A stretch of 64,000 nt of DNA, taken from contig JAJRTR010000140.1 in NCBI GenBank assembly GCA_024278215.1, positions 6,716 to 70,715 on the forward strand, read 5' to 3'. Under the pieces are notes generated by a model. It saw only the letters and a program-made list of their open reading frames with translations, had not been told where the DNA came from and made no database searches. Position numbers and translations under genes: made by a program. Positions 13,495-42,703 of the stretch are shown here, piece by piece. The stretch is from a bacterium. Its GTDB lineage: Bacteria; UBP15; UBA6099; JAJRTR01. Within the stretch, counting starts at the first letter, position 1. The number at the start of each line of letters is the position of its first letter.

Positions 13495-13678
13495 ATTTAT
13501 TCGGCCCCTTTTTGTTATTGCGGAAACTATACTCTCACATTACAGTTGAAGAAGGAAGGTGTCAAGAGATAATCTATACATGTAGCAGCGCTGAAATTGC
13601 AAAAAAATTGATTTGAAGTTACGATCTTAGTGGTGCTGACAGGTTATTATGGGACAACATGATATAGAATACATGTCA

Positions 13679-13857
13679 GAGCCAATTGCAATATTATGTT
13701 CGTAGCGAGGTCGAGCGAAATTATCCAGAGCAAGGAGGAGGTGTAAAATCCTCGCTGGCGTACTTGTAGAGTACGTCGAGAACGATTTTGTACCGACAAC
13801 GCAGCTATGGACAACCAGCAGCCAACCGCAGCAGAATCGTAATTTTGCAATTGGCTC
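13679..13857 (+). mobile_element. MITE-like foldback element, copy A (179 bp)
   Basis: Starts GAGCCAATTGCAATAT and ends ATTTTGCAATTGGCTC. Flanked by direct repeat GTCA/GTCA. About 90% identical by eye to copies at 24499, 26443 and 54043. No credible ORF. Confidence 0.85.
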
Positions 13858-13884
13858 GTCAGACAATGGAGCGGGTGGTTTAAT

Positions 13885-15333
13885 ATGGAACTGAGTCACG
13901 CTCACCTGCGCATCGGTGCGAGCGATGTGAAGAGCGATCTCAAACAGCGGATGATCAACAGGCTTCACTGGATACACGTGATGCGCTGGTTCGCGGTGGG
14001 CGTCGCATGTATCGCGATGCTTTCCGCGTGGTTTCTGTACAGGCTGCCGCTCCATTACGCCGCGCTTGCGTCTTCCGTACTGCTGCTTGCGATATTCAAT
14101 GTAACATTTACATACGCCGGGCGTCGTTTCGATCATGAAACCACGCCGATGTGGAAATTCAACCGCCTGATATATTCAGAAATATCTGTCGATTTCATAT
14201 TGCTCGCCTGCATGATTCACCTCACCGGCGGGATCAGCAATTTTTTCGCTTTCTATTACGTTCTGCATATCGTAATCGGCAACCTGCTCGTGCCGCGCAA
14301 GGTCGGCTATTTCATGGCGGCCATGGGCACATTGCTCGTCGGTGCAGTCGCCATTCTCGAAATGAAAGGTATCCTGCCTCATTATTCACTGGGTTCCTTC
14401 GCGCCCGACAACGCTTATGCCGAACCCGGCTATGTGTTCCACTACATGATCATTTTATCCGGACTGCTTTTCGCCATGTCTTATGTCGCATCTACTCTTT
14501 CCATGATGATTTACCGAAGGGAACGCTACCTGACCGAACTGAAAGAAAAACTCGAAGTATGGAACCGGCAGATGCGGCTTGCAAACGACCGTCTCATAGA
14601 GATCGACAGGACGAAAACGCAGTTTATGCGGCTGTCGGGGCACGAGATACGCTCGCCCCTGAGCGCGATGCTAAGTATAATGCGGACGATACTCGAGGGG
14701 TACGTCAAGGAAGAAGGGAAGATACTCGAGATGATCGGCCTGGCGAACCGGCGCGCGAACGAAGCGCTCGAGATCACTAATAAGCTCCTGCAACTCGCCC
14801 GCGAAAAAGGCAAAGACCTCGAACCCGAATCCTTCGACATGATCGCCGAAACTATAGCGGAGATCAAGGAAATCGGGCCGCTCGCCGAAAAACATTTTGT
14901 CAGTGTCGACCTCGAACCCCCGACCGCCGATTCGATACTCGTGCATGTAGACCGCGAAAGTTTTCGCCTGGCTGTTCAGAATCTTCTTTCAAACGCGATA
15001 ATATATTCGAACCCGGAAAGCAGGGTAACCGTGCATCTCGAAAAGTGGCATGACAAGGGCATGGTGATCATTGTCGACCGCGGTATCGGCATACCCGAGG
15101 AGTTCATGCCCGGCATCTACGACGAGTTCAGCCGCGCGCGCAACGCACGCAAACACGACCACTCGGGCACAGGGCTCGGCATGTCCATCACAAGGCAGGC
15201 GGCCGTCAACATCGGCGGCAGCATCACCGTCAGAAGCATTTCGCTTCAGGGAACTGTAGCCCGCCTCACGGTGCCGCTCAGGAAAAATGAATCGTCGGTC
15301 GACGACTCCGAAGCGCAACAGCAACTCGCATAA
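13885..15333 (+). CDS. Membrane sensor histidine kinase
   Basis: N-terminal TM helices. HisKA H-box (LSGHEIRSPLSAM). HATPase N, G1 and G2 boxes (NLLSNAIIYS, DRGIGIP, GTGLGMSI). TAA stop. Confidence 0.85.
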   Translation: MELSHAHLRIGASDVKSDLKQRMINRLHWIHVMRWFAVGVACIAMLSAWFLYRLPLHYAALASSVLLLAIFNVTFTYAGRRFDHETTPMWKFNRLIYSEISVDFILLACMIHLTGGISNFFAFYYVLHIVIGNLLVPRKVGYFMAAMGTLLVGAVAILEMKGILPHYSLGSFAPDNAYAEPGYVFHYMIILSGLLFAMSYVASTLSMMIYRRERYLTELKEKLEVWNRQMRLANDRLIEIDRTKTQFMRLSGHEIRSPLSAMLSIMRTILEGYVKEEGKILEMIGLANRRANEALEITNKLLQLAREKGKDLEPESFDMIAETIAEIKEIGPLAEKHFVSVDLEPPTADSILVHVDRESFRLAVQNLLSNAIIYSNPESRVTVHLEKWHDKGMVIIVDRGIGIPEEFMPGIYDEFSRARNARKHDHSGTGLGMSITRQAAVNIGGSITVRSISLQGTVARLTVPLRKNESSVDDSEAQQQLA

Positions 15334-15409
15334 CAGAAAAACCCGGACGGTTTTTCTTGAGAAGGCAAACCCTGCAACAGCAACTTAGACAAAGGACAGA
15401 AACAGATAC

Positions 15410-16834
15410 ATGCTTGAAAAAGTGGAAACGACAACAGACAGAACACTTATAAAAAATGTCGATCTTCTTGATGTGAAAAACGGTGATATAAGCAAGACTG
15501 TGAATGTGTTCGCATCGGGAGGAGTGATAGCGGATGTGGATGCCGCCCCCAAGCGGGAAGATTGCGATGTGATCGACGGGCAAGGCTATACGATGATCCC
15601 CGGCCTCATAAACTGCCACGCCCACATACTGAGTCCGTTTATATCCGAGCAGGACGGGCTGCCCGGCCTGTGGTCGTTGCACCAGATGCGCCTCAACATG
15701 GAGGCGACACTCGCGGCAGGCGTCGTCTGCGTGAGGGACCTGCTTGCGGTGATACATGTGATGAATCGAATGAGAGCGAAAATCGAATCCGGAAAAATCG
15801 CCGGCCCCGACATCGTGGCGGCAGGTCCGGTGCTGAGTTGTAAAGGCGGATACCCTGAGTTCATAACACCGTTGTACTTTCCTCTGTCGGCGATAGCCGG
15901 TCAACCGAAGTTGCATCTGCGCACAGTCAAAAAAGCCGTGGCCATGGTTCGCCATATCCACAAATGCGGCGCGGAAGTCGCAAAAGTCGGCTACACTTCA
16001 TTCACACGAGATTTCTTTTCAAAGAATAATATGCCGACAATATCCGACGAGGTTTTTGACGCTGTATGCAGCACCGCCCACAAACTCGATATGAAGGTGG
16101 CTGTGCATCACAACTGGGCGGACGATGTGCCGAAGATACTGCGCGCGGATATCGATTCGCTCGAACATGTCGTTTACGACCGGGAAATGAACGACCGGGA
16201 AATCGCCATGATCAAGGACAGCGGTGTGGTTGTTGTGCCGACTTTGACGATCTCGAACAGCATGGCGCGTCTCGAGGAAAAGAGAGGATTCCTGCACAGC
16301 GAACGCGCGAAAGAACGCTTCGACTATCATGCGCTGGAACATCTCCAGTGGATCGCCGATACGTGGCTCGACTTTAACGGGGAAAAATACGACAAGTCGT
16401 TCGGCTTCTGGCGCGCAAACAGAAAACATTCCGCTATAACAGAGCGAAACGCCACAAAACTGTACGAGGCGGGTGTGCCGCTGTGCGCCGGGACAGACCT
16501 GGGCGCGGTGGTCGCCTGGCCGGGTGAGCTTGCCGACGAAATAAAACGGCTCCACCACATCGGCATGACAAAGCTCGAAGCTATCCAGGCAGCTACAATA
16601 AATGCGGCGAAACTTGTCGGCCGGGAAAAGCTTCTCGGCTCCGTCGAAGTCGGAAAAAGGTCGGATGTCGTTCTCGTCGAAGGCAATCCGCTCGATGACC
16701 TCGACGCGCTCAAGAAGGTTCGCCTTGTGGGCCGGGGTGGCCGATGGTACAGGCCGCTGCACTCGGAAGTACCGGACTTCTGGCCCGGCTACAATGTGCT
16801 CTCCCACTACGACGAGTCGGAAGATACTCTTTAA
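15410..16834 (+). CDS. Amidohydrolase-family metal-dependent hydrolase
   Basis: GLINCHAHIL (HxH metal motif), later VAVHH and GTDLG, and C-terminal GSVEVGKRSDVVLVEGNPL typical of the amidohydrolase fold. Confidence 0.8.
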   Translation: MLEKVETTTDRTLIKNVDLLDVKNGDISKTVNVFASGGVIADVDAAPKREDCDVIDGQGYTMIPGLINCHAHILSPFISEQDGLPGLWSLHQMRLNMEATLAAGVVCVRDLLAVIHVMNRMRAKIESGKIAGPDIVAAGPVLSCKGGYPEFITPLYFPLSAIAGQPKLHLRTVKKAVAMVRHIHKCGAEVAKVGYTSFTRDFFSKNNMPTISDEVFDAVCSTAHKLDMKVAVHHNWADDVPKILRADIDSLEHVVYDREMNDREIAMIKDSGVVVVPTLTISNSMARLEEKRGFLHSERAKERFDYHALEHLQWIADTWLDFNGEKYDKSFGFWRANRKHSAITERNATKLYEAGVPLCAGTDLGAVVAWPGELADEIKRLHHIGMTKLEAIQAATINAAKLVGREKLLGSVEVGKRSDVVLVEGNPLDDLDALKKVRLVGRGGRWYRPLHSEVPDFWPGYNVLSHYDESEDTL

Positions 16835-36396: not shown

Positions 36397-36425
36397 TTGA
36401 CACCTGGCGATATTATGTATATTCT
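36397..36425 (+). promoter_or_regulatory. Sigma70-type promoter candidate for the Rrf2-led redox locus
   Basis: TTGACA - 17 nt - TATTCT, about 80 nt upstream of the Rrf2 start. Confidence 0.5.
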
Positions 36426-36502: not shown

Positions 36503-36922
36503 TTGAGGATAAAAACCAGGGTCAGATACGCAGTCAGGCTTATGGCGGATATTATGATTCATGGTAAAGAAAACAATGTGCCTCTCAAAGATGTCGCCGA
36601 GCGCCAGAACCTCTCCAAAAGATACCTTTCCCATCTTGCAATCCACTTGAAAAATGCGCAGCTTCTCAAGAGCGTGTGGGGTATGAACGGTGGCTACAAG
36701 CTCGGGCGGCACGCATCCGAAATCAGGATAATCGACATTATGGAAGCAGTCGACGGACCTGTGAATATTATTGATTGCATATCCGACCCCACCTGCTGCG
36801 AAAGGCATGATTACTGCGAATGCCTGGAAGTATGGAAAGATATAAACAATGGTATCACGTCGACACTCAAGAGATATACGCTGGAGGATCTTGCCTGTGT
36901 TCCTGCTGTAGTGCAGGAGTAG
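36503..36922 (+). CDS. Rrf2-family transcriptional regulator (Cys-cluster type)
   Basis: RVRYAVRLMADI...LKDVAERQNLSKRYLSHL wHTH. Cys cluster DCISDPTCCERHDYCEC. TTG start, TAG stop. Confidence 0.85.
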   Translation: MRIKTRVRYAVRLMADIMIHGKENNVPLKDVAERQNLSKRYLSHLAIHLKNAQLLKSVWGMNGGYKLGRHASEIRIIDIMEAVDGPVNIIDCISDPTCCERHDYCECLEVWKDINNGITSTLKRYTLEDLACVPAVVQE

Positions 36923-37020
36923 CACGGCTTGAAATATGTTGTTCCAGGGACGCGAGTCGGGAATTGGATAGAAATTCCCGGCATGTTCCTATCCACCAAA
37001 AACCCAAAGGAGGCGGGCAA

Positions 37021-37569
37021 ATGTCCATTGCAGCTTTTACAAAGCCTGTAGAGACAAAAGTAGGAAGTACAAAAGTAAAGCTTCTTCGTGAAGACCTTAC
37101 TGCGCTTAAGGTAGACGCGTTTGTCTACTATGCGAGAGAGAACCTTGATATCGGGACGGGATACGGCACGGCGATCCAGATGCGGGGCGGGCTGGAGGTT
37201 AAAAAAGAGCTTGAGAAAATCGGGAGCATCAGGATGGGCGAGTGTGTCATTACAACCGCCGGCATGATGAACTGTGAGCATATTATTCATGTCTGCGGCC
37301 CCAAGTTTCTTGAACCCGACATCGAGAAAAAACTCCGCACCTGCATGGAAAATGTACTGAAGACGGCAAAGAAAAACGGACTGAAGACGCTGGCCCTGCC
37401 GCCCATGGGGACAGGATTCTACGGTGTGCCACTGCCTGTTTGCGTCAGCGTGATGATTGACACCATTACGCAGCATATCCGGGGCGGCACGACTCTCGAG
37501 GAAATCATCATTTGTGTCGTCGACAAGCGTGACTTCAACGCTTTTAAAGAAAAAGTCGCAAATCTCTGA
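37021..37569 (+). CDS. Macro-domain protein (ADP-ribose binding/hydrolase family)
   Basis: ATG 37021 is preceded by AAAGGAGG. LTALKVDAFVYYAREN, VITTAGMMNCEHIIHVCGP and LALPPMGTGFYGVP match macro-domain blocks. Confidence 0.8.
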   Translation: MSIAAFTKPVETKVGSTKVKLLREDLTALKVDAFVYYARENLDIGTGYGTAIQMRGGLEVKKELEKIGSIRMGECVITTAGMMNCEHIIHVCGPKFLEPDIEKKLRTCMENVLKTAKKNGLKTLALPPMGTGFYGVPLPVCVSVMIDTITQHIRGGTTLEEIIICVVDKRDFNAFKEKVANL

Positions 37570-37590
37570 GAAAAGGAGCATCAAGAAATT

Positions 37591-38337
37591 ATGGGAAATG
37601 AAATCAATCCGCTTGTAGAGTTCGCTGTACATCAACTCCACTGGGTTCTGTTGTTTATGGGCACGGTGTACGCTTTCAAGATCAGATGGATACTGAAGCA
37701 TCCGGCGGGTAAGGACCGACAGGCGCCCACCGGCGAAGCGAACCAGACCTCGAAGTCCGGCGCATGGTATTCCCTCTTCAGCATCGCCATGCCCTGGACC
37801 CTGAACAGTTATCGGGAAAAACCTATGATGTACGTGCAGTTTGTTATTTTTCATATATGTGTGGCGATGTCCATCACTATGACGATTGTCTTTTCATACA
37901 GGCCGGTGTGGCTGTCGGCCCCTGCCACTATCGCAGTGATTCAGGTGATATATGCCGCCGGTTTCATCGTAGGCCTGTACCGGCTGGCGCGCCGGGTTTT
38001 CTCACCGGTGATGCGCATGATAAGTTCGCCGGACGATTACTTCTCAATGGCGCTCCTCGTAGTGTGGGTGGGGTTCAGCTTCCTAGTGATCGGCCAGGCA
38101 CCGGCGTTCGCGGTGGCCATCGGCCAGCTCGACGCGTCGCAGGTCGCCAGTACTCAACTGAATGAAATACCGCTGATCGCTTATTATTTTCTGACGGCCT
38201 TCTTCCTCATCTATGTGCCGTTCAGCAAAATATCGCACTATATTTTTTATCCTTTCACCCGCTGGCATTTCGGCCAGACGATGGGGCACAGGGGTATCTA
38301 CCCGCTCAAGAGAATTGATAAGATGAAAGCAAGATGA
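37591..38337 (+). CDS. NarI/DsrM/HmcE-like membrane cytochrome b subunit
   Basis: Five or six TM helices, conserved His in helices, and the family motif VPFSKISHYIFYPF. 21 nt after the macro gene and 37 nt before the HdrD-like gene. Confidence 0.7.
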   Translation: MGNEINPLVEFAVHQLHWVLLFMGTVYAFKIRWILKHPAGKDRQAPTGEANQTSKSGAWYSLFSIAMPWTLNSYREKPMMYVQFVIFHICVAMSITMTIVFSYRPVWLSAPATIAVIQVIYAAGFIVGLYRLARRVFSPVMRMISSPDDYFSMALLVVWVGFSFLVIGQAPAFAVAIGQLDASQVASTQLNEIPLIAYYFLTAFFLIYVPFSKISHYIFYPFTRWHFGQTMGHRGIYPLKRIDKMKAR

Positions 38338-38374: not shown

Positions 38375-40120
38375 ATGGGAAAAACAAGATCATATAAAGC
38401 ACAAAAAGTTGTAGACCTGATGAAAGCTAAAACAAAGAGCCGGCAAATTATGTTGTCCCTGGAGTCCTGCGTAAAGTGCGGACAGTGCATCGACCAGTGC
38501 CACTATGTGCTGGCGAACCCGGACGACCCGACCTTCGCACCGCCCTACAAGGCGGACAAGTTGCGCAAGTTCTTCAAGGCGCACGAGGACTGGACCGGCA
38601 AGGTCATCCCCTGGTGGGTCGGCGCGAGAAGCATCTACACCGACGAGGAACTCGAGGAACTAAAAGATGTCGTGTTCGGCAAATGCACTGGATGCCGCCG
38701 ATGTTCCCTCGTATGCCCTATGGGTGTGGACATGGCCACGTTCAACGGCATGGCCCGCAATCTTCTCTATTCCGTCGGCATCATGCCCGAGGGCGTGTGG
38801 GCGGTGGCCAAAGACCAGTGGGAGATCGGCAACCAGATGGGTGTACTCAAGGAAGACTACCTGGATACACTCGAGTGGATGGAAGAAGAACTACAGTCCA
38901 AACACAACGACCCGAGCATAAAAATACCGATAGATAAAAAAGGCGCTGACATAATGTACACCATCAACCCGCGCGAAGCGAAGTACGACCCGCGCTCTAT
39001 AGCGGATGCCGCCGAGATATTTCATTTCGCCGGCGCCGACTGGTGTATGCCCAGCGAAGGCTGGGACATGACGAACTTCGGGCTGTTTGTGGGAGACCCG
39101 TCGCTGGGTGCCGCCGCATCAAGCAGGCTGTATACAGCAGCCCAGGAACTGGGGGTCAATAAGGTCGTCATCTCCGAGTGCGGACACGGCTACAGGTCCA
39201 CCAAATGCGAAGGGCCCAACTGGGCAAAGATGGACCTTGATTTCCCCATGGAAAGTTCCGTCATAACGATGCTCGACTACATCAAGCAGGGTAAAATAAA
39301 AGTTGACAAATCGAAGAACTCCGAAAAAGTCACATATCACGATTCCTGCAATTTCGCACGCAGCTGCGGCATGACCGAGGAGCCTCGCGAAGTGCTGAGC
39401 CTCGTATGCTCGGACATCCAGGAGATGTATCCCAACCGGCAGTGGAACTACTGCTGCACAGGCGGCGGCGGTGCGATGTCCATGTCGGAATACGCGCCCA
39501 TGCGTCTGAAATCCGCCAAGATCAAGGCGGAACAGCTCAGGGCCACCGGTGCGAAGATCGTCGTCACTTCCTGCCACAACTGCGTGGACGGCCTCACCGA
39601 CCTCATCAAGCATTATAACCTCGACATGAAGGTGACACAGCTTGTAAACCTCGTCGCAAACGCGCTTGTCGTGCCGGCGTCGAAAATGCCGAAGGTTATG
39701 AAAGAAGTCTCTATGCCTCTGGCCGGTAAAAAGATTCTTGTCATCGACGACGAACCGGATGTAAGAATATTCCTCACCAAAATATTCAAAGAGAACGGCT
39801 GTGAGGTTTTTGAAGCGCCGGATGCCAATCAGGGAATGAGGATTATCAGGGACAAGAACCCGGACCTCGTGTCTCTCGATATGATCCTGCCCCACAAAAC
39901 CGGTGAAAAACTGTATTGGGAACTTCGCAAAGACGAGAAATACAAAAAGCTCCCGGTTGTTATCGTTTCAGGCTATACGAAGATTGATGATCCGAAGATA
40001 GATTTCGACGCATTCCTGGAAGATAAGGGTATTCCCGCTCCCCAGGGCTTTGTGGAAAAACCGATTCATCCGGATGTGCTGATCGAGACAATATCGGGTG
40101 TGCTGCTCGAAAAGGTTTGA
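38375..40120 (+). CDS. HdrD/DsrK/HmcF-like Fe-S (CCG-domain) oxidoreductase fused to a C-terminal response-regulator receiver domain
   Basis: Two ferredoxin motifs (CVKCGQCIDQC, CTGCRRCSLVCP). CCG-type Cys motifs (ECGHGYRS, YHDSCNFARSCG, CCTGGGG, TSCHNC). Then KKILVIDDEPD...DLVSLDMILP...VEKPI receiver. Confidence 0.85.
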   Translation: MGKTRSYKAQKVVDLMKAKTKSRQIMLSLESCVKCGQCIDQCHYVLANPDDPTFAPPYKADKLRKFFKAHEDWTGKVIPWWVGARSIYTDEELEELKDVVFGKCTGCRRCSLVCPMGVDMATFNGMARNLLYSVGIMPEGVWAVAKDQWEIGNQMGVLKEDYLDTLEWMEEELQSKHNDPSIKIPIDKKGADIMYTINPREAKYDPRSIADAAEIFHFAGADWCMPSEGWDMTNFGLFVGDPSLGAAASSRLYTAAQELGVNKVVISECGHGYRSTKCEGPNWAKMDLDFPMESSVITMLDYIKQGKIKVDKSKNSEKVTYHDSCNFARSCGMTEEPREVLSLVCSDIQEMYPNRQWNYCCTGGGGAMSMSEYAPMRLKSAKIKAEQLRATGAKIVVTSCHNCVDGLTDLIKHYNLDMKVTQLVNLVANALVVPASKMPKVMKEVSMPLAGKKILVIDDEPDVRIFLTKIFKENGCEVFEAPDANQGMRIIRDKNPDLVSLDMILPHKTGEKLYWELRKDEKYKKLPVVIVSGYTKIDDPKIDFDAFLEDKGIPAPQGFVEKPIHPDVLIETISGVLLEKV

Positions 40121-40252
40121 CTTTACAATGTTCGTGAAATAATGACCGCGTGGAAGAATGGGGCCGGGCACTGGAGTAATAACGTAATTATTCGGAAATG
40201 GCTGAGACACTGGATTCGTGTGTCGGCGCCCATTGTAACCCGGAGGTGAAGA

Positions 40253-41725
40253 ATGGCAACTGAAACTCTGGCGGAAAACGGCACAGGTAAACTTGATGTC
40301 CACGAACTTGTTTGTGAAAGACTCTTCGACGAGGTGCCCTGCTATATCTCGATCCAGGACCGCGATTTCCGGATAGTCGAGGCAAACAGTAAGTTTGAAA
40401 AAGAATTCGGCAAACGCATCGGCGAGTTCTGCTACAAGGTATACAAGGGCACGGACCACGTGTGCCCCGACTGCCCTATAGAAGTGACATTCAGCGACGG
40501 CAGGGAGCAGACGCGGGAAATTGTCATATTCGACCGCAAGGGCCTGCCCCGCGACATGCTGGTCGTCACAAAACCTCTTCGCGACAACATCGGCAACATC
40601 GTTTGCGTCATGGAAATGTTCACCGACATCACCGTGACCAAAGAACTCCAGAAACGACTCAAAGACAGCCTGACACGTTATCACACTCTGTTCGACAGAG
40701 TGCCGTGTTTCGTTTCCGTGCAGGACCGCGACTTCAGGATCATGGAAGCAAACCAGATGTTCGAGGACAGCTTCGGAGAGCGGCGCGGCGAGTTGTGCTA
40801 CAAAGTCTACAAGCAACGGGACGAGCGTTGCGAGGAATGCCCGGTCGCTAAAACATTCGAGGACGACCGTGTGCACAGCAGCTAGGAAGTCCTCATCACC
40901 GGCGACGGCAGTCAGATGAATGTCATGGTTTACACGTCGCCTATAAAGGATAACAGCGGGAACACTGTGGCGGTTATGGAAATGCTCACCGACATAACGC
41001 AGGTCCGCAAACTTCAGGAGGAACTCGCGCGTGTGGGCAAACTGGTAGCCAGCGCGGCCCACGGCGCCAAAAACGTGATAGACGGCCTGCGCGGCGGCGT
41101 TTATGTGCTCAACATCGGCCTGCGCGACGGAGACCAGGAAAGTATAGACACCGGCTGGGACATGGTCAAAAGAAACGTGGACCGCGTTTCCGCTATGGTC
41201 ATGGACATGCTCTACTGTGCGAAGGAGAGAACCCCGCGCCGACTGGCGGTCTCTGTGCCGGAGATCGCCCGCGAGGTGATCGAACTCTACAGCAAACGCG
41301 CCAAAGACCGCAATGTGACACTGTCGGGCGAAATAGACGATGTCGAAACTATCACGGCGGACCCTAAAGATATTCACTCCATGCTGGCCAACCTGGTGAC
41401 AAATGCCATAGACGCCTGCGGAGAAGTCGAGGACACCGAACGCGAGTTCAACGTTACATTAAGGGTTTTTCAGGATGATGATAAGATCATTATTGAAGTC
41501 GAGGACAACGGGATCGGCATTGGCGACGAAGCAAAAAAGAAACTGTTCAACGTCTTCTACTCGACCAAAGGCGCGTTCGGCACCGGGTTCGGCCTGCTGG
41601 TGTCGCACAAAGTCGCCACGGAACACGGCGGCGAGATATCCGTTTCTTCGGAAAGAAACAAAGGCGCTAAATTTATTGTAAAGCTGCCTTCGAGTAATAC
41701 TCTGGACCCCGAAGCCGGGGAATAA
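40253..41725 (+). pseudogene. Cytoplasmic double-PAS (Cys-rich) histidine kinase interrupted by one in-frame TAG (40883..40885): pseudogene or read-through gene
   Basis: ORFs 40253..40885 and 40916..41725 share one frame. The sequence across the stop (FEDDRVHSS*EVLITGDGSQMNVMVYTSPIKDNSGNTVAVMEMLTDIT) aligns with the first PAS module (FSDGREQTREIVIFDRKGLPRDMLVVTKPLRDNIGNIVCVMEMFTDIT). The downstream part has an H-box (ASAAHGAKN) and HATPase (DNGIGI, GTGFGL). Confidence 0.7.
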
Positions 41726-41811: not shown

Positions 41812-42216
41812 ATGAAAAAGATACTTGTGGTGGACGACGAGAAAGACATCCGGATATTCCTGAAGAAACTCATGGAGGAGAACGGATACAGCGTATCATG
41901 CGCGACAGACGGAGAATAGGCGCTTTCGTGCATATCGAGTGAAAAACCGGACCTGATAACACTGGACATGTCCATGCCCAACAAATCGGGAATCAGGTTC
42001 TACCGGGAATTGCGCGACCATGCGGAAACCGCCACGATCCCTGTCATAGTAGTCACAGGCATCACCGGCCAGGGCGGTTCCGACGACACGGAACGGTTCC
42101 TGAAAACAAGAGGAAGCATCCCGCCGCCCGAAGCGTTCGTGCCGAAGCCGATTGATGAACGCGAACTCATAGACACTGTCGGCAAACTGTTGAACAAAGA
42201 AAAAGCGGCGTTCTGA
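41812..42216 (+). pseudogene. Stand-alone receiver-domain response regulator interrupted by one in-frame TAG (41917..41919): pseudogene or read-through gene
   Basis: ATG 41812 is preceded by AAGGGGA. MKKILVVDDEKDIRIFLKKLMEENGYSVSCATDGE*ALSCISSEKPDLITLDMSMPNKSG... stays in one frame to TGA 42216. It is a paralog of the receiver fused to the HdrD-like protein. Confidence 0.7.
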
Positions 42217-42217
42217 C

Positions 42218-42703
42218 GTGAAGTTTTCAACCAAAGCAAGATATGCTGTCAGGCTGATGATAGACATTGCCGAACACAGCGTGGATACCCAGCCTGTGCA
42301 GATAAAAGAAATATCTGCCAGGCAGGGTATATCCGAGCGCTATCTCGGGCAACTCGTTATTTCATTAAAAAACAAAGGACTCATCCGCGGAATCAGCGGC
42401 AAAAGCGGCGGCTATCTCCTTGCGAAACAACCAGCGAATATCAGAATCAGCGACATCATCGAGACGATGATCGGACAGATAAATGTTGTTGATTGCGTGC
42501 GAAATCCCGACGCATGCGACAAGACCGGTTTTTGTGAGATGAGAAAAATTTATTCGCTTGTGAACGACCGCATACTCGAGACGCTCGCAGGTTTCACACT
42601 GGCGGCAGTAGTCGAGTCGAGAAAAAACGCCCCGCCTCATACGGATTCGTGCACTGGTTGTGAAAAATGCTCCGTTCGAGACCTTTGCAGCACCAGCTTC
42701 TGA
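42218..42703 (+). CDS. Rrf2-family regulator with an extra C-terminal Cys motif
   Basis: GTG start 1 nt after the receiver stop. KARYAVRLMIDI wHTH. Cluster motif DCVRNPDACDKTGFC plus tail CTGCEKCSVRDLC. Confidence 0.8.
   Translation: MKFSTKARYAVRLMIDIAEHSVDTQPVQIKEISARQGISERYLGQLVISLKNKGLIRGISGKSGGYLLAKQPANIRISDIIETMIGQINVVDCVRNPDACDKTGFCEMRKIYSLVNDRILETLAGFTLAAVVESRKNAPPHTDSCTGCEKCSVRDLCSTSF

Follow-up and report, generated by a model that had tools for sequence, protein, structure and literature searches.

A DsrK/HmcF-class iron-sulfur subunit with a C-terminal receiver domain, encoded in a conserved redox and signaling cassette of uncultured bacteria

The fused gene and its domains

This report concerns a gene in a 64,000-nucleotide stretch of the bacterial contig JAJRTR010000140.1 (the window, to which all positions refer). 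The gene encodes a protein of 581 amino acids (aa) in which an iron-sulfur (Fe-S) catalytic subunit of the DsrK/HmcF class is joined to a C-terminal receiver domain (REC); we refer to it as K::REC. An initial annotation, made from the sequence by itself, had described an uninterrupted open reading frame (ORF) of this length with two ferredoxin-type motifs, and both features were confirmed. The frame is open throughout 38375..40120 on the forward strand, with an AAGGAG ribosome-binding site 6 nucleotides 5' of the start codon, and the Pfam families Fer4_8 and Fer4_17 cover residues 29-119. The features of the gene are as follows.

38375..40120, + strand: K::REC, DsrK/HmcF-class Fe-S catalytic subunit with a C-terminal receiver, 581 aa (profile searches and alignments)
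38468..38716, + strand: two ferredoxin-type CX2CX2CX3C motifs (Pfam Fer4_8/Fer4_17)
39176..39187, + strand: ECGH cysteine motif, E268-C269-G270-H271, preceded by S (ECGH in 75/75 members)
39329..39583, + strand: single complete CCG domain with C325, C360-C361 (spelled CCT) and C400-x2-C403 (Pfam CCG)
39680..39724, + strand: variable linker between the catalytic domain and the receiver, about residues 436-450 (low model confidence, low conservation)
39725..40108, + strand: CheY-like receiver, residues 451-578, with D458/D459, D502, S532, F559 and K562-P563 (Pfam, alignment and structure model)

The ferredoxin motifs read C32-x2-C35-x2-C38-x3-C42 and C104-x2-C107-x2-C110-x3-C114. All eight cysteines are kept in 75/75 aligned members of the K::REC family, and from this pattern two [4Fe-4S] clusters are expected to be bound. 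Pfam CCG matches one stretch, residues 319-403, at 39.9 bits (cut-off 20.6). Within it C325, C360, C361 and C400 occur in 75/75 members and C403 in 73/75, with Asp in the remaining two; the motif is spelled CCT in 69/75 members and CCG in 4/75. The noncubane [4Fe-4S] catalytic cluster is predicted to reside in this domain. Of a first CCG motif only the ECGH cysteine and two further cysteines, C278 and C331, remain.

These motifs point to the class of the enzyme. HdrD and HdrB carry two CCG motifs, whereas DsrK, HmcF and TmcB carry one together with a conserved T/GECGH cysteine for which a catalytic role has been proposed (PMC10861901). The initial annotation had called the protein HdrD/DsrK-type, with CCG motifs in the plural; the DsrK/HmcF half of that assignment stands, but there is one complete CCG motif (as CCT) plus the ECGH cysteine, Cys269, rather than two, and an HdrD-type identity, which requires both, was rejected. 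Membership in the DsrK/HmcF/TmcB class is well supported by the two ferredoxin motifs, the one CCG motif and the ECGH cysteine. Among NCBIfam models, the highest-scoring are HmcF (334 bits; cut-off 750), TmcB (317.6 bits; cut-off 735) and DsrK (266.4 bits; cut-off 400), and K::REC therefore represents a separate clade of the same class. A sequence search of the PDB with K::REC matched only receivers and EtfD, and no DsrK structure. In an AlphaFold2 (AF2) model the mean predicted local distance difference test score (pLDDT) is 69.7, with the Fe-S loops below 50. Residues 437-445 of the linker also fall below 50; across the family the linker varies from 12 to 35 residues, with a column conservation of 0.36 against 0.81 in the catalytic domain.

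The complete CheY-like receiver named in the initial annotation is borne out by a Pfam Response_reg match over residues 454-573 (61.4 bits; cut-off 30.2). Its Asp/Lys pocket was aligned first in 20 homologues and then in the broader set of 75 family members, and is intact family-wide. The acidic pair is present as D458 in 72/75 and D459 in 69/75 members, the phospho-acceptor D502 in 69/69, the Thr or Ser at 532 in 69/69, the aromatic switch residue (Y/F559) in 73/73, and K562-P563 in 69/69. With every element of the pocket in place, the alignment supports a genuine receiver that could be phosphorylated. The AF2 model gives it the canonical (beta-alpha)5 fold, running b1-a1 through b5-a5, and Foldseek aligned it to RR468, Spo0F, DivK and CheY with template modeling (TM) scores of 0.87-0.88.

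Distribution of the fusion

The fusion is encoded in at least 518 species genomes from at least 12 phylum-level groups, and all of the matches listed are metagenome-assembled genomes. The locus counts given below rest on the best 80 of these at least 518 stretches, from data holding one genome per species and labeled L001-L080. The best 80 come from Acidobacteriota, Zixibacteria, Ignavibacteria/Kapaibacteria, Planctomycetota, Thermodesulfobacteriota, Myxococcota, Gemmatimonadota, Calditrichota, LCP-89, Poribacteria, Abyssobacteria and others.

A check of domain architecture, suggested with the initial annotation, came out clearly: among the protein search matches listed were more than 120 full-length K::REC homologues, 66-84% identical, and all of them carry both CCG and Response_reg. 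They derive from NCBI, JGI, ENA and Logan assemblies. A second protein search, with a 54%-identical member as the query, added about 120 further K::REC-type proteins. In a library clustered at 50% identity, the best 150 matches included one full-length fused representative, P0121 (54% identical), and the next full-length relatives were unfused and at most 43% identical. The possibility raised at the outset, an artefact of assembly or a frameshift, is refuted: hundreds of independent assemblies show the fusion, and the full-length architecture is found in more than 200 independent protein clusters as well as in the at least 518 species genomes. We give an artefact practically no chance.

In databases these proteins are annotated merely as "response regulator" or "Fe-S oxidoreductase/CheY-like". 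Full-text literature searches, together with selective reading of the main comparative papers on dsr genes, found no description of the fusion or of the cassette around it. The dsrM2/dsrK2 paralogues already published may include the fusion. K::REC is a DsrK-class subunit and equally a response regulator, with a partner domain that seems not to have been described, and it is known from uncultured organisms only.

The surrounding cassette

K::REC lies in an operon-like run of genes on the forward strand.

36503..36922, + strand: Rrf2-family (IscR/NsrR-like) regulator at the head of the operon (Pfam Rrf2, 116.5 bits; NCBIfam rrf2_super, 117 bits, cut-off 73.3)
37021..37569, + strand: Macro-domain protein, about 182 aa (Pfam Macro, 78.6 bits)
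37591..38337, + strand: HmcE/TmcC/DsrM-like integral membrane subunit, 248 aa, about five hydrophobic segments (NCBIfam)
40253..41725, + strand: cytoplasmic PAS-PAS histidine kinase, 490 codons, phospho-His H270 (Pfam PAS_4/PAS_8 and HATPase_c)
41812..42216, + strand: stand-alone single-domain receiver, paralogous to the fused receiver and 45% identical to it
42218..42703, + strand: second Rrf2-family regulator at the end of the operon, the next gene being convergent (Pfam Rrf2, 117.8 bits; NCBIfam)

Searches of the 80 loci with the window proteins (tblastn) returned the same order wherever the contig reached: Macro protein, HmcE-like membrane protein, K::REC, PAS-PAS histidine kinase, single-domain receiver. 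This five-gene cassette is essentially invariant. In the closest relative of the window the contig ends ahead of the kinase gene. Across the loci, identity is 69-80% for the catalytic domain, 28-75% for the fused receiver, 39-58% for the kinase, 36-62% for the Macro protein and 39-60% for the membrane subunit. No DNA-binding response regulator was found in the core cassette of the 80 loci, and K::REC is therefore the only enzyme-linked output of the kinase.

The DsrM-like partner expected by the initial annotation is indeed encoded directly upstream, and this membrane subunit gene always stands directly 5' of K::REC. Its NCBIfam matches, all far under the cut-offs, are HmcE (3.3e-10, 40 bits), TmcC (4e-8, 33 bits) and DsrM (4e-5, 23 bits), and hhalign relates it to a DsrM-like paralogue with a probability of 72%. 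It is presumed to be the quinone-interacting partner of the Fe-S subunit. H88 and H216 are the only invariant His of the family, and a conserved Lys, K213, stands where the DsrM-like paralogue has a second His. Neither the operon of the window nor the core cassette of any of the 80 loci was found to contain a gene for a periplasmic multiheme cytochrome c or an NrfCD-like subunit; DsrO-like genes were seen only within separate dsr clusters nearby.

The kinase is soluble, with H270 as the H-box His, and in the loci reached it always adjoins K::REC. Its PAS domains hold invariant cysteine sets, C60 with C71-x2-C74, and C152 with C182 and C193-x2-C196, a pattern that resembles those of PAS domains acting as Fe-S or redox-disulfide sensors. 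Both the kinase and the stand-alone receiver had been recognized in the initial annotation, and both genes were located, but an in-frame TAG in each had been overlooked. In the kinase it lies at 40883-40885, at a site where 78/78 homologues have Glu; in the free receiver the codon is 41917-41919, a position held by Glu in 43 homologues and by Gln in 17. Apart from these codons both genes are intact, with their conserved motifs retained. Recoding of TAG, as pyrrolysine (Pyl) or another sense codon, was considered, and genome-wide reassignment is unlikely because other window genes end normally on TAG and the in-frame codons fall at Glu or Glu/Gln sites. The ambers could be sequencing or consensus errors, strain variants, sites of read-through or signs of early pseudogenization.

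The fused receiver and its free paralogue share 45% identity (58/130; BLASTP E = 7e-34), somewhat less than the figure of roughly 50% first estimated by eye. The best-scoring NCBIfam family for both is DVU0259_DivK (NF045717), at 107.1 bits for the free and 80.6 bits for the fused receiver; with a cut-off of 160, neither is a member. A shared insertion before the K-P motif had been pointed out, and it is real: in the window fused receiver 30 residues separate the beta4 Ser/Thr from the conserved Lys, against 22 in a canonical receiver, and alignment with a canonical receiver shows eight extra residues. It does not, however, characterize the family, being found in 15 of 69 fused receivers, all in one subclade comprising the window and Acidobacteria; in the majority of the fused receivers this distance is 23 residues, and in the free receivers it is 25 or 30-31. 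In pairwise comparisons, the fused receivers of two subclades (the window with L001-L021, and L022-L080) are 38.6% identical to each other, no nearer than either is to the free receivers, and the catalytic domains of the same two subclades are about 70% identical. This pattern of identities suggests that fused receivers were replaced, underwent gene conversion or diverged very fast.

The initial annotation considered that the adjacent kinase probably serves both receivers, and the comparison points the same way. Within genomes, the alpha1 helices of the fused and free receivers are 0.52 identical, against 0.483 +/- 0.014 when partners are shuffled, a value reached in 11/2000 shuffles. The remainder of the receiver domain shows no within-genome excess (0.377 against 0.378 shuffled), so relatedness is controlled for. 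The proposal that one kinase serves the fused and the free receiver is thus modestly supported by synteny in about 80 loci and by co-variation in alpha1.

Association with sulfur genes and comparison with known systems

In 11 of the 80 loci, dsrA/dsrB, dsrC, dsrD, dsrN, sat or dsrO lie within 8 kb of the cassette. The neighbors that scored above NCBIfam cut-offs are DsrA (580 bits), Sat (477), DsrO (310) and DsrC (122). The order in L034 is dsrA-dsrB-...-dsrN-...-dsrC-Macro-M'-K::REC-kinase, where M' denotes the membrane subunit, so that dsrC is directly 5' of the cassette. A second DsrM-like/DsrK-like pair occurs downstream of the cassette in 11 loci. A receiver of the same subtype follows this second, distant pair, 28-31% identical and with a K subunit of about 540 aa that carries GECGH, in L027 (6304-9478) and L079 (11585-13682, - strand), where the ORFs were read, and in L053 (about 13587-15700) by tblastn only.

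An unfused sister clade (the P0127 family, about 41% identical) occurs in Zixibacteria, Aminicenantes and others. Its genes form a compact dsrC-M'-K' operon, in which K' is the receiverless catalytic subunit, with a convergent cysteine desulfurase (L082, 6031-8353; L083, 6032-8350; L084, 6155-8353). The catalytic domain is of the same HmcF-like kind, and so is the type of membrane subunit, with its PDD.F and K-I-x-H motifs. Unlike the cassette, the sister operon has no receiver, kinase or Macro gene, and a bona fide DsrC, which keeps the redox-active C-x10-C-V end, is encoded in the slot that the Macro gene takes in the cassette. An ADP-ribosylglycohydrolase gene lies near the sister-clade operon in L083. 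One other relative from the 50% representative library, P0125 (549 aa, 43% identical), has a DsrC-like C-terminal domain in the position of the receiver. This domain was considered as proof of the substrate and rejected as such; because both redox cysteines are absent, it is kept only as a hint.

The cassette shares with HmcF/HmcE, TmcB/TmcC and DsrK/DsrM the two ferredoxin motifs, the single CCG motif, the (T/G/S)ECGH motif and an adjacent membrane subunit, here putatively of the NarI superfamily. Relative to HmcF, TmcB and DsrK, K::REC adds the C-terminal receiver, has CCT for CCG and scores under the cut-offs. Relative to the Hmc, Tmc and DsrMKJOP complexes, the cassette lacks periplasmic cytochrome c and NrfCD-like subunits, its membrane partner has two invariant His, and it brings a Macro protein, a kinase and a second receiver.

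A parallel in gene order is the tail of the Desulfovibrio hmc operon, hmcE-hmcF-rrf1-rrf2, in which rrf1 encodes a CheY-like receiver with an effect on the regulation of hmc. In Nitratidesulfovibrio (Desulfovibrio) vulgaris this is a run of membrane subunit, Fe-S subunit, receiver and Rrf2, and the window order is M'-K::REC-(kinase)-REC-Rrf2, with the same ending in L001. The cassette differs in the covalent attachment of one receiver and in its additional kinase and Macro genes. DivK-like DVU0259, the type of the family closest to both receivers, is encoded beside the tmc operon; the beta4-to-beta5 segment is longer in the window subclade.

Response regulators of the CheB, PleD, RpfG and RssB types likewise join a phosphorylatable receiver covalently to an enzyme domain, with a kinase encoded nearby. 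K::REC differs from them in carrying its receiver at the C-terminus and in what would be its output, a redox subunit with several Fe-S clusters that belongs to a membrane complex. No description of an Fe-S redox subunit as a class of response-regulator output was found in the literature searched, and such a subunit would now join the known output domains. In ArcB- and RegB-type systems the redox state of the quinone pool is coupled to two-component signaling through cysteines of the sensor kinase. There the quinone acts directly on the kinase, whereas here a dedicated Fe-S enzyme would, hypothetically, mediate.

Proposed function and alternatives

The reading that we favor, with a rough probability of 45%, is that the cassette encodes a quinol:(DsrC-type) di/trisulfide oxidoreductase of the DsrMK type, and that the Cys-rich PAS kinase switches this enzyme by phosphorylating its catalytic subunit. 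It builds on the domain content, on intact catalytic and phospho-acceptor residues, on the conserved cassette and on the link to dsr genes. For the substrate, the direction of signaling and the gating mechanism we infer the following scheme. K::REC would be the cytoplasmic catalytic subunit of a two-subunit membrane redox module of the DsrMK/HmcEF type, in which a membrane b-type subunit is paired with an Fe-S subunit that holds two [4Fe-4S] clusters and, in its CCG domain, one noncubane cluster. Through this module the menaquinone pool would exchange electrons with the di- or trisulfide of a protein, most likely a carrier of the DsrC type. With its Cys-rich PAS domains the soluble kinase would monitor the redox or sulfur status of the cytoplasm, and it would phosphorylate both the fused receiver and its free paralogue. 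Once phosphorylated, the fused receiver would switch the enzyme on or off, either by moving to or from a docking position close to the active site or through dimerization, and the free receiver would serve as a second branch or as a sink. Such post-translational control of electron flow would act atop transcriptional control by the flanking Rrf2-type regulators.

DsrMK-type modules perform the last, energy-conserving electron transfer of dissimilatory sulfite/sulfate reduction, and to our knowledge how their activity is regulated is essentially unknown. The presence of the fusion in at least 518 species of many phyla, together with its placement in dsr gene clusters in part of the loci, argues for a two-component system that acts directly on the enzyme complex. 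Receivers beside DsrK paralogues, the hmcF-rrf1 arrangement and the best match of both receivers to DVU0259 make the covalent fusion look like a Rosetta-stone case for direct interaction of this class of enzyme with this class of receiver. A wider partnership, in which DivK/Rrf1-like receivers bind DsrK/HmcF/TmcB-type subunits and gate respiratory disulfide/trisulfide-reductase complexes through two-component phosphorylation, or in which the complexes are enzymatic quinone-pool sensors that determine the redox state of a Cys-rich PAS kinase, is more doubtful. If true, it could explain the receiver genes (rrf1, DVU0259-like) that stand beside hmc, tmc and dsrK/dsrM2K2 paralogues, including the old puzzle of rrf1, and it would provide facultative, newly discovered lineages that carry dsr genes with a fast switch of sulfur respiration.

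Several observations weigh against a phosphorylation-switched, DsrC-linked enzyme. There is no dsr gene, neither dsrC nor dsrAB, in the 64-kb window, and none within 8 kb in most of the 80 loci. K::REC stays under every NCBIfam equivalog cut-off of its class, and the membrane subunit, with only two invariant His, may bind at most one bis-His heme and not the two of DsrM or NarI. The flexible linker of 12-35 residues offers no structural clue as to how enzyme and receiver would be coupled. The fused receiver diverges far faster than the enzyme (28-75% against 69-80% identity) and looks swapped or free-running between subclades, which fits a loose accessory as well as a tight allosteric switch. 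In the window itself one amber codon interrupts the kinase gene and another the free receiver gene, and because of these codons the two-component circuit may be broken in this genome.

The interrupted genes lead to one alternative, that the signaling arm of the window genome is decaying, with kinase and free receiver as pseudogenes and the fused receiver a vestige on a constitutive enzyme. The kinase codon does replace a Glu kept in every homologue, the receiver codon falls at a Glu/Gln site and TAG is an ordinary stop elsewhere in the window. Yet both genes are otherwise fully intact, the changes (GAG to TAG in the kinase, GAG or CAG to TAG in the receiver) are two first-position substitutions about 1 kb apart that could be sequencing or consensus errors, strain variants or sites of read-through, and the fused receiver keeps every pocket residue, all of which makes decay quite unlikely. 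The fast evolution of the fused receiver and the variable length of its linker speak for another alternative, a phosphate sink or membrane anchor, in which the fused receiver competes with the free one for phosphoryl groups or localizes the kinase to the membrane while enzyme activity is unaffected. Every locus has two paralogous receivers per kinase, and single-domain phosphate sinks of the DivK/CheY type are well known. We nonetheless regard a sink or anchor as very unlikely, since the fusion has been retained in at least 518 species, and all the full-length family members listed (at least about 54% identity) possess it, which argues for direct coupling, and receivers are genetically tied to other DsrK paralogues too.

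A further possibility reverses the flow of information. The membrane and Fe-S subunits would form the input, equilibrating the menaquinone pool with the cysteine clusters of the kinase PAS domains, as an enzymatic counterpart of ArcB-type quinone sensing; the fused receiver would mainly be a docking handle or feedback element that keeps the reductase on the kinase, its substrate, and the free receiver would be the output. Among the partners in the cassette (kinase, Macro protein and free receiver) invariant cysteine clusters occur only in these PAS domains, the Macro protein having one Cys at 90% conservation and the receivers none, and dsrC is not part of the cassette itself. The catalytic domain, 69-80% identical across phyla, is as conserved as would be expected if much of its surface were engaged, and receivers dock on kinases through alpha1, the helix that co-varies between the two receivers. 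Against a relay of this kind, the full phospho-acceptor pocket is conserved, which would be superfluous for a mere tether, and the cysteines of the PAS domains might just as well be ligands of a metal or an Fe-S cluster. In the sister clade, moreover, DsrC is clearly the partner of the enzyme, and a metabolic substrate is favored by the association with dsr genes. On balance we consider the relay unlikely, and prefer to see the Fe-S enzyme as the target of the kinase.

Flanking regulators and other features of the operon

A sigma70-like promoter match (promoter scan) lies at 36397-36425, 5' of the first Rrf2 gene. Rrf2 genes stand ahead of the cassette in many loci, but the upstream regulators are not uniform (L030, L032, L039, L043, L044, L063 and others; also L023, L062, L066, L068, L070 and L077). 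By lineage, three unrelated types were found: Rrf2, an excisionase-type helix-turn-helix (HTH) protein, and an ArsC/LMW-PTP-PAS-sigma54 activator. The HTH protein has a Cys-rich middle and a receiver-like C-terminus that lacks the acidic pair. The downstream Rrf2 regulator of the window has an extra Cys-rich C-terminal tail, C-x2-C-x2-C-x6-C, and L001 has an Rrf2 gene at the same position at the end of its cassette.

The Macro gene was delimited mechanically as an ORF from 36820, and its likely start is the ATG at 37021, after AAAGGAGG. It precedes the membrane subunit gene in nearly all of the 80 loci, with homologues of 182-187 aa. In the family consensus V.YA replaces the usual NAAN, and the G.GFYG motif is kept; because of this replacement the Macro protein may bind its ligand instead of hydrolyzing it.

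Long stop-free antisense ORFs were also seen, one over the kinase gene (39968-41377, - strand, 469 aa) and one over the Macro and membrane subunit genes (36811-37854, - strand, 347 aa). Similar antisense ORFs occur in 29 loci and are most likely an effect of codon composition.

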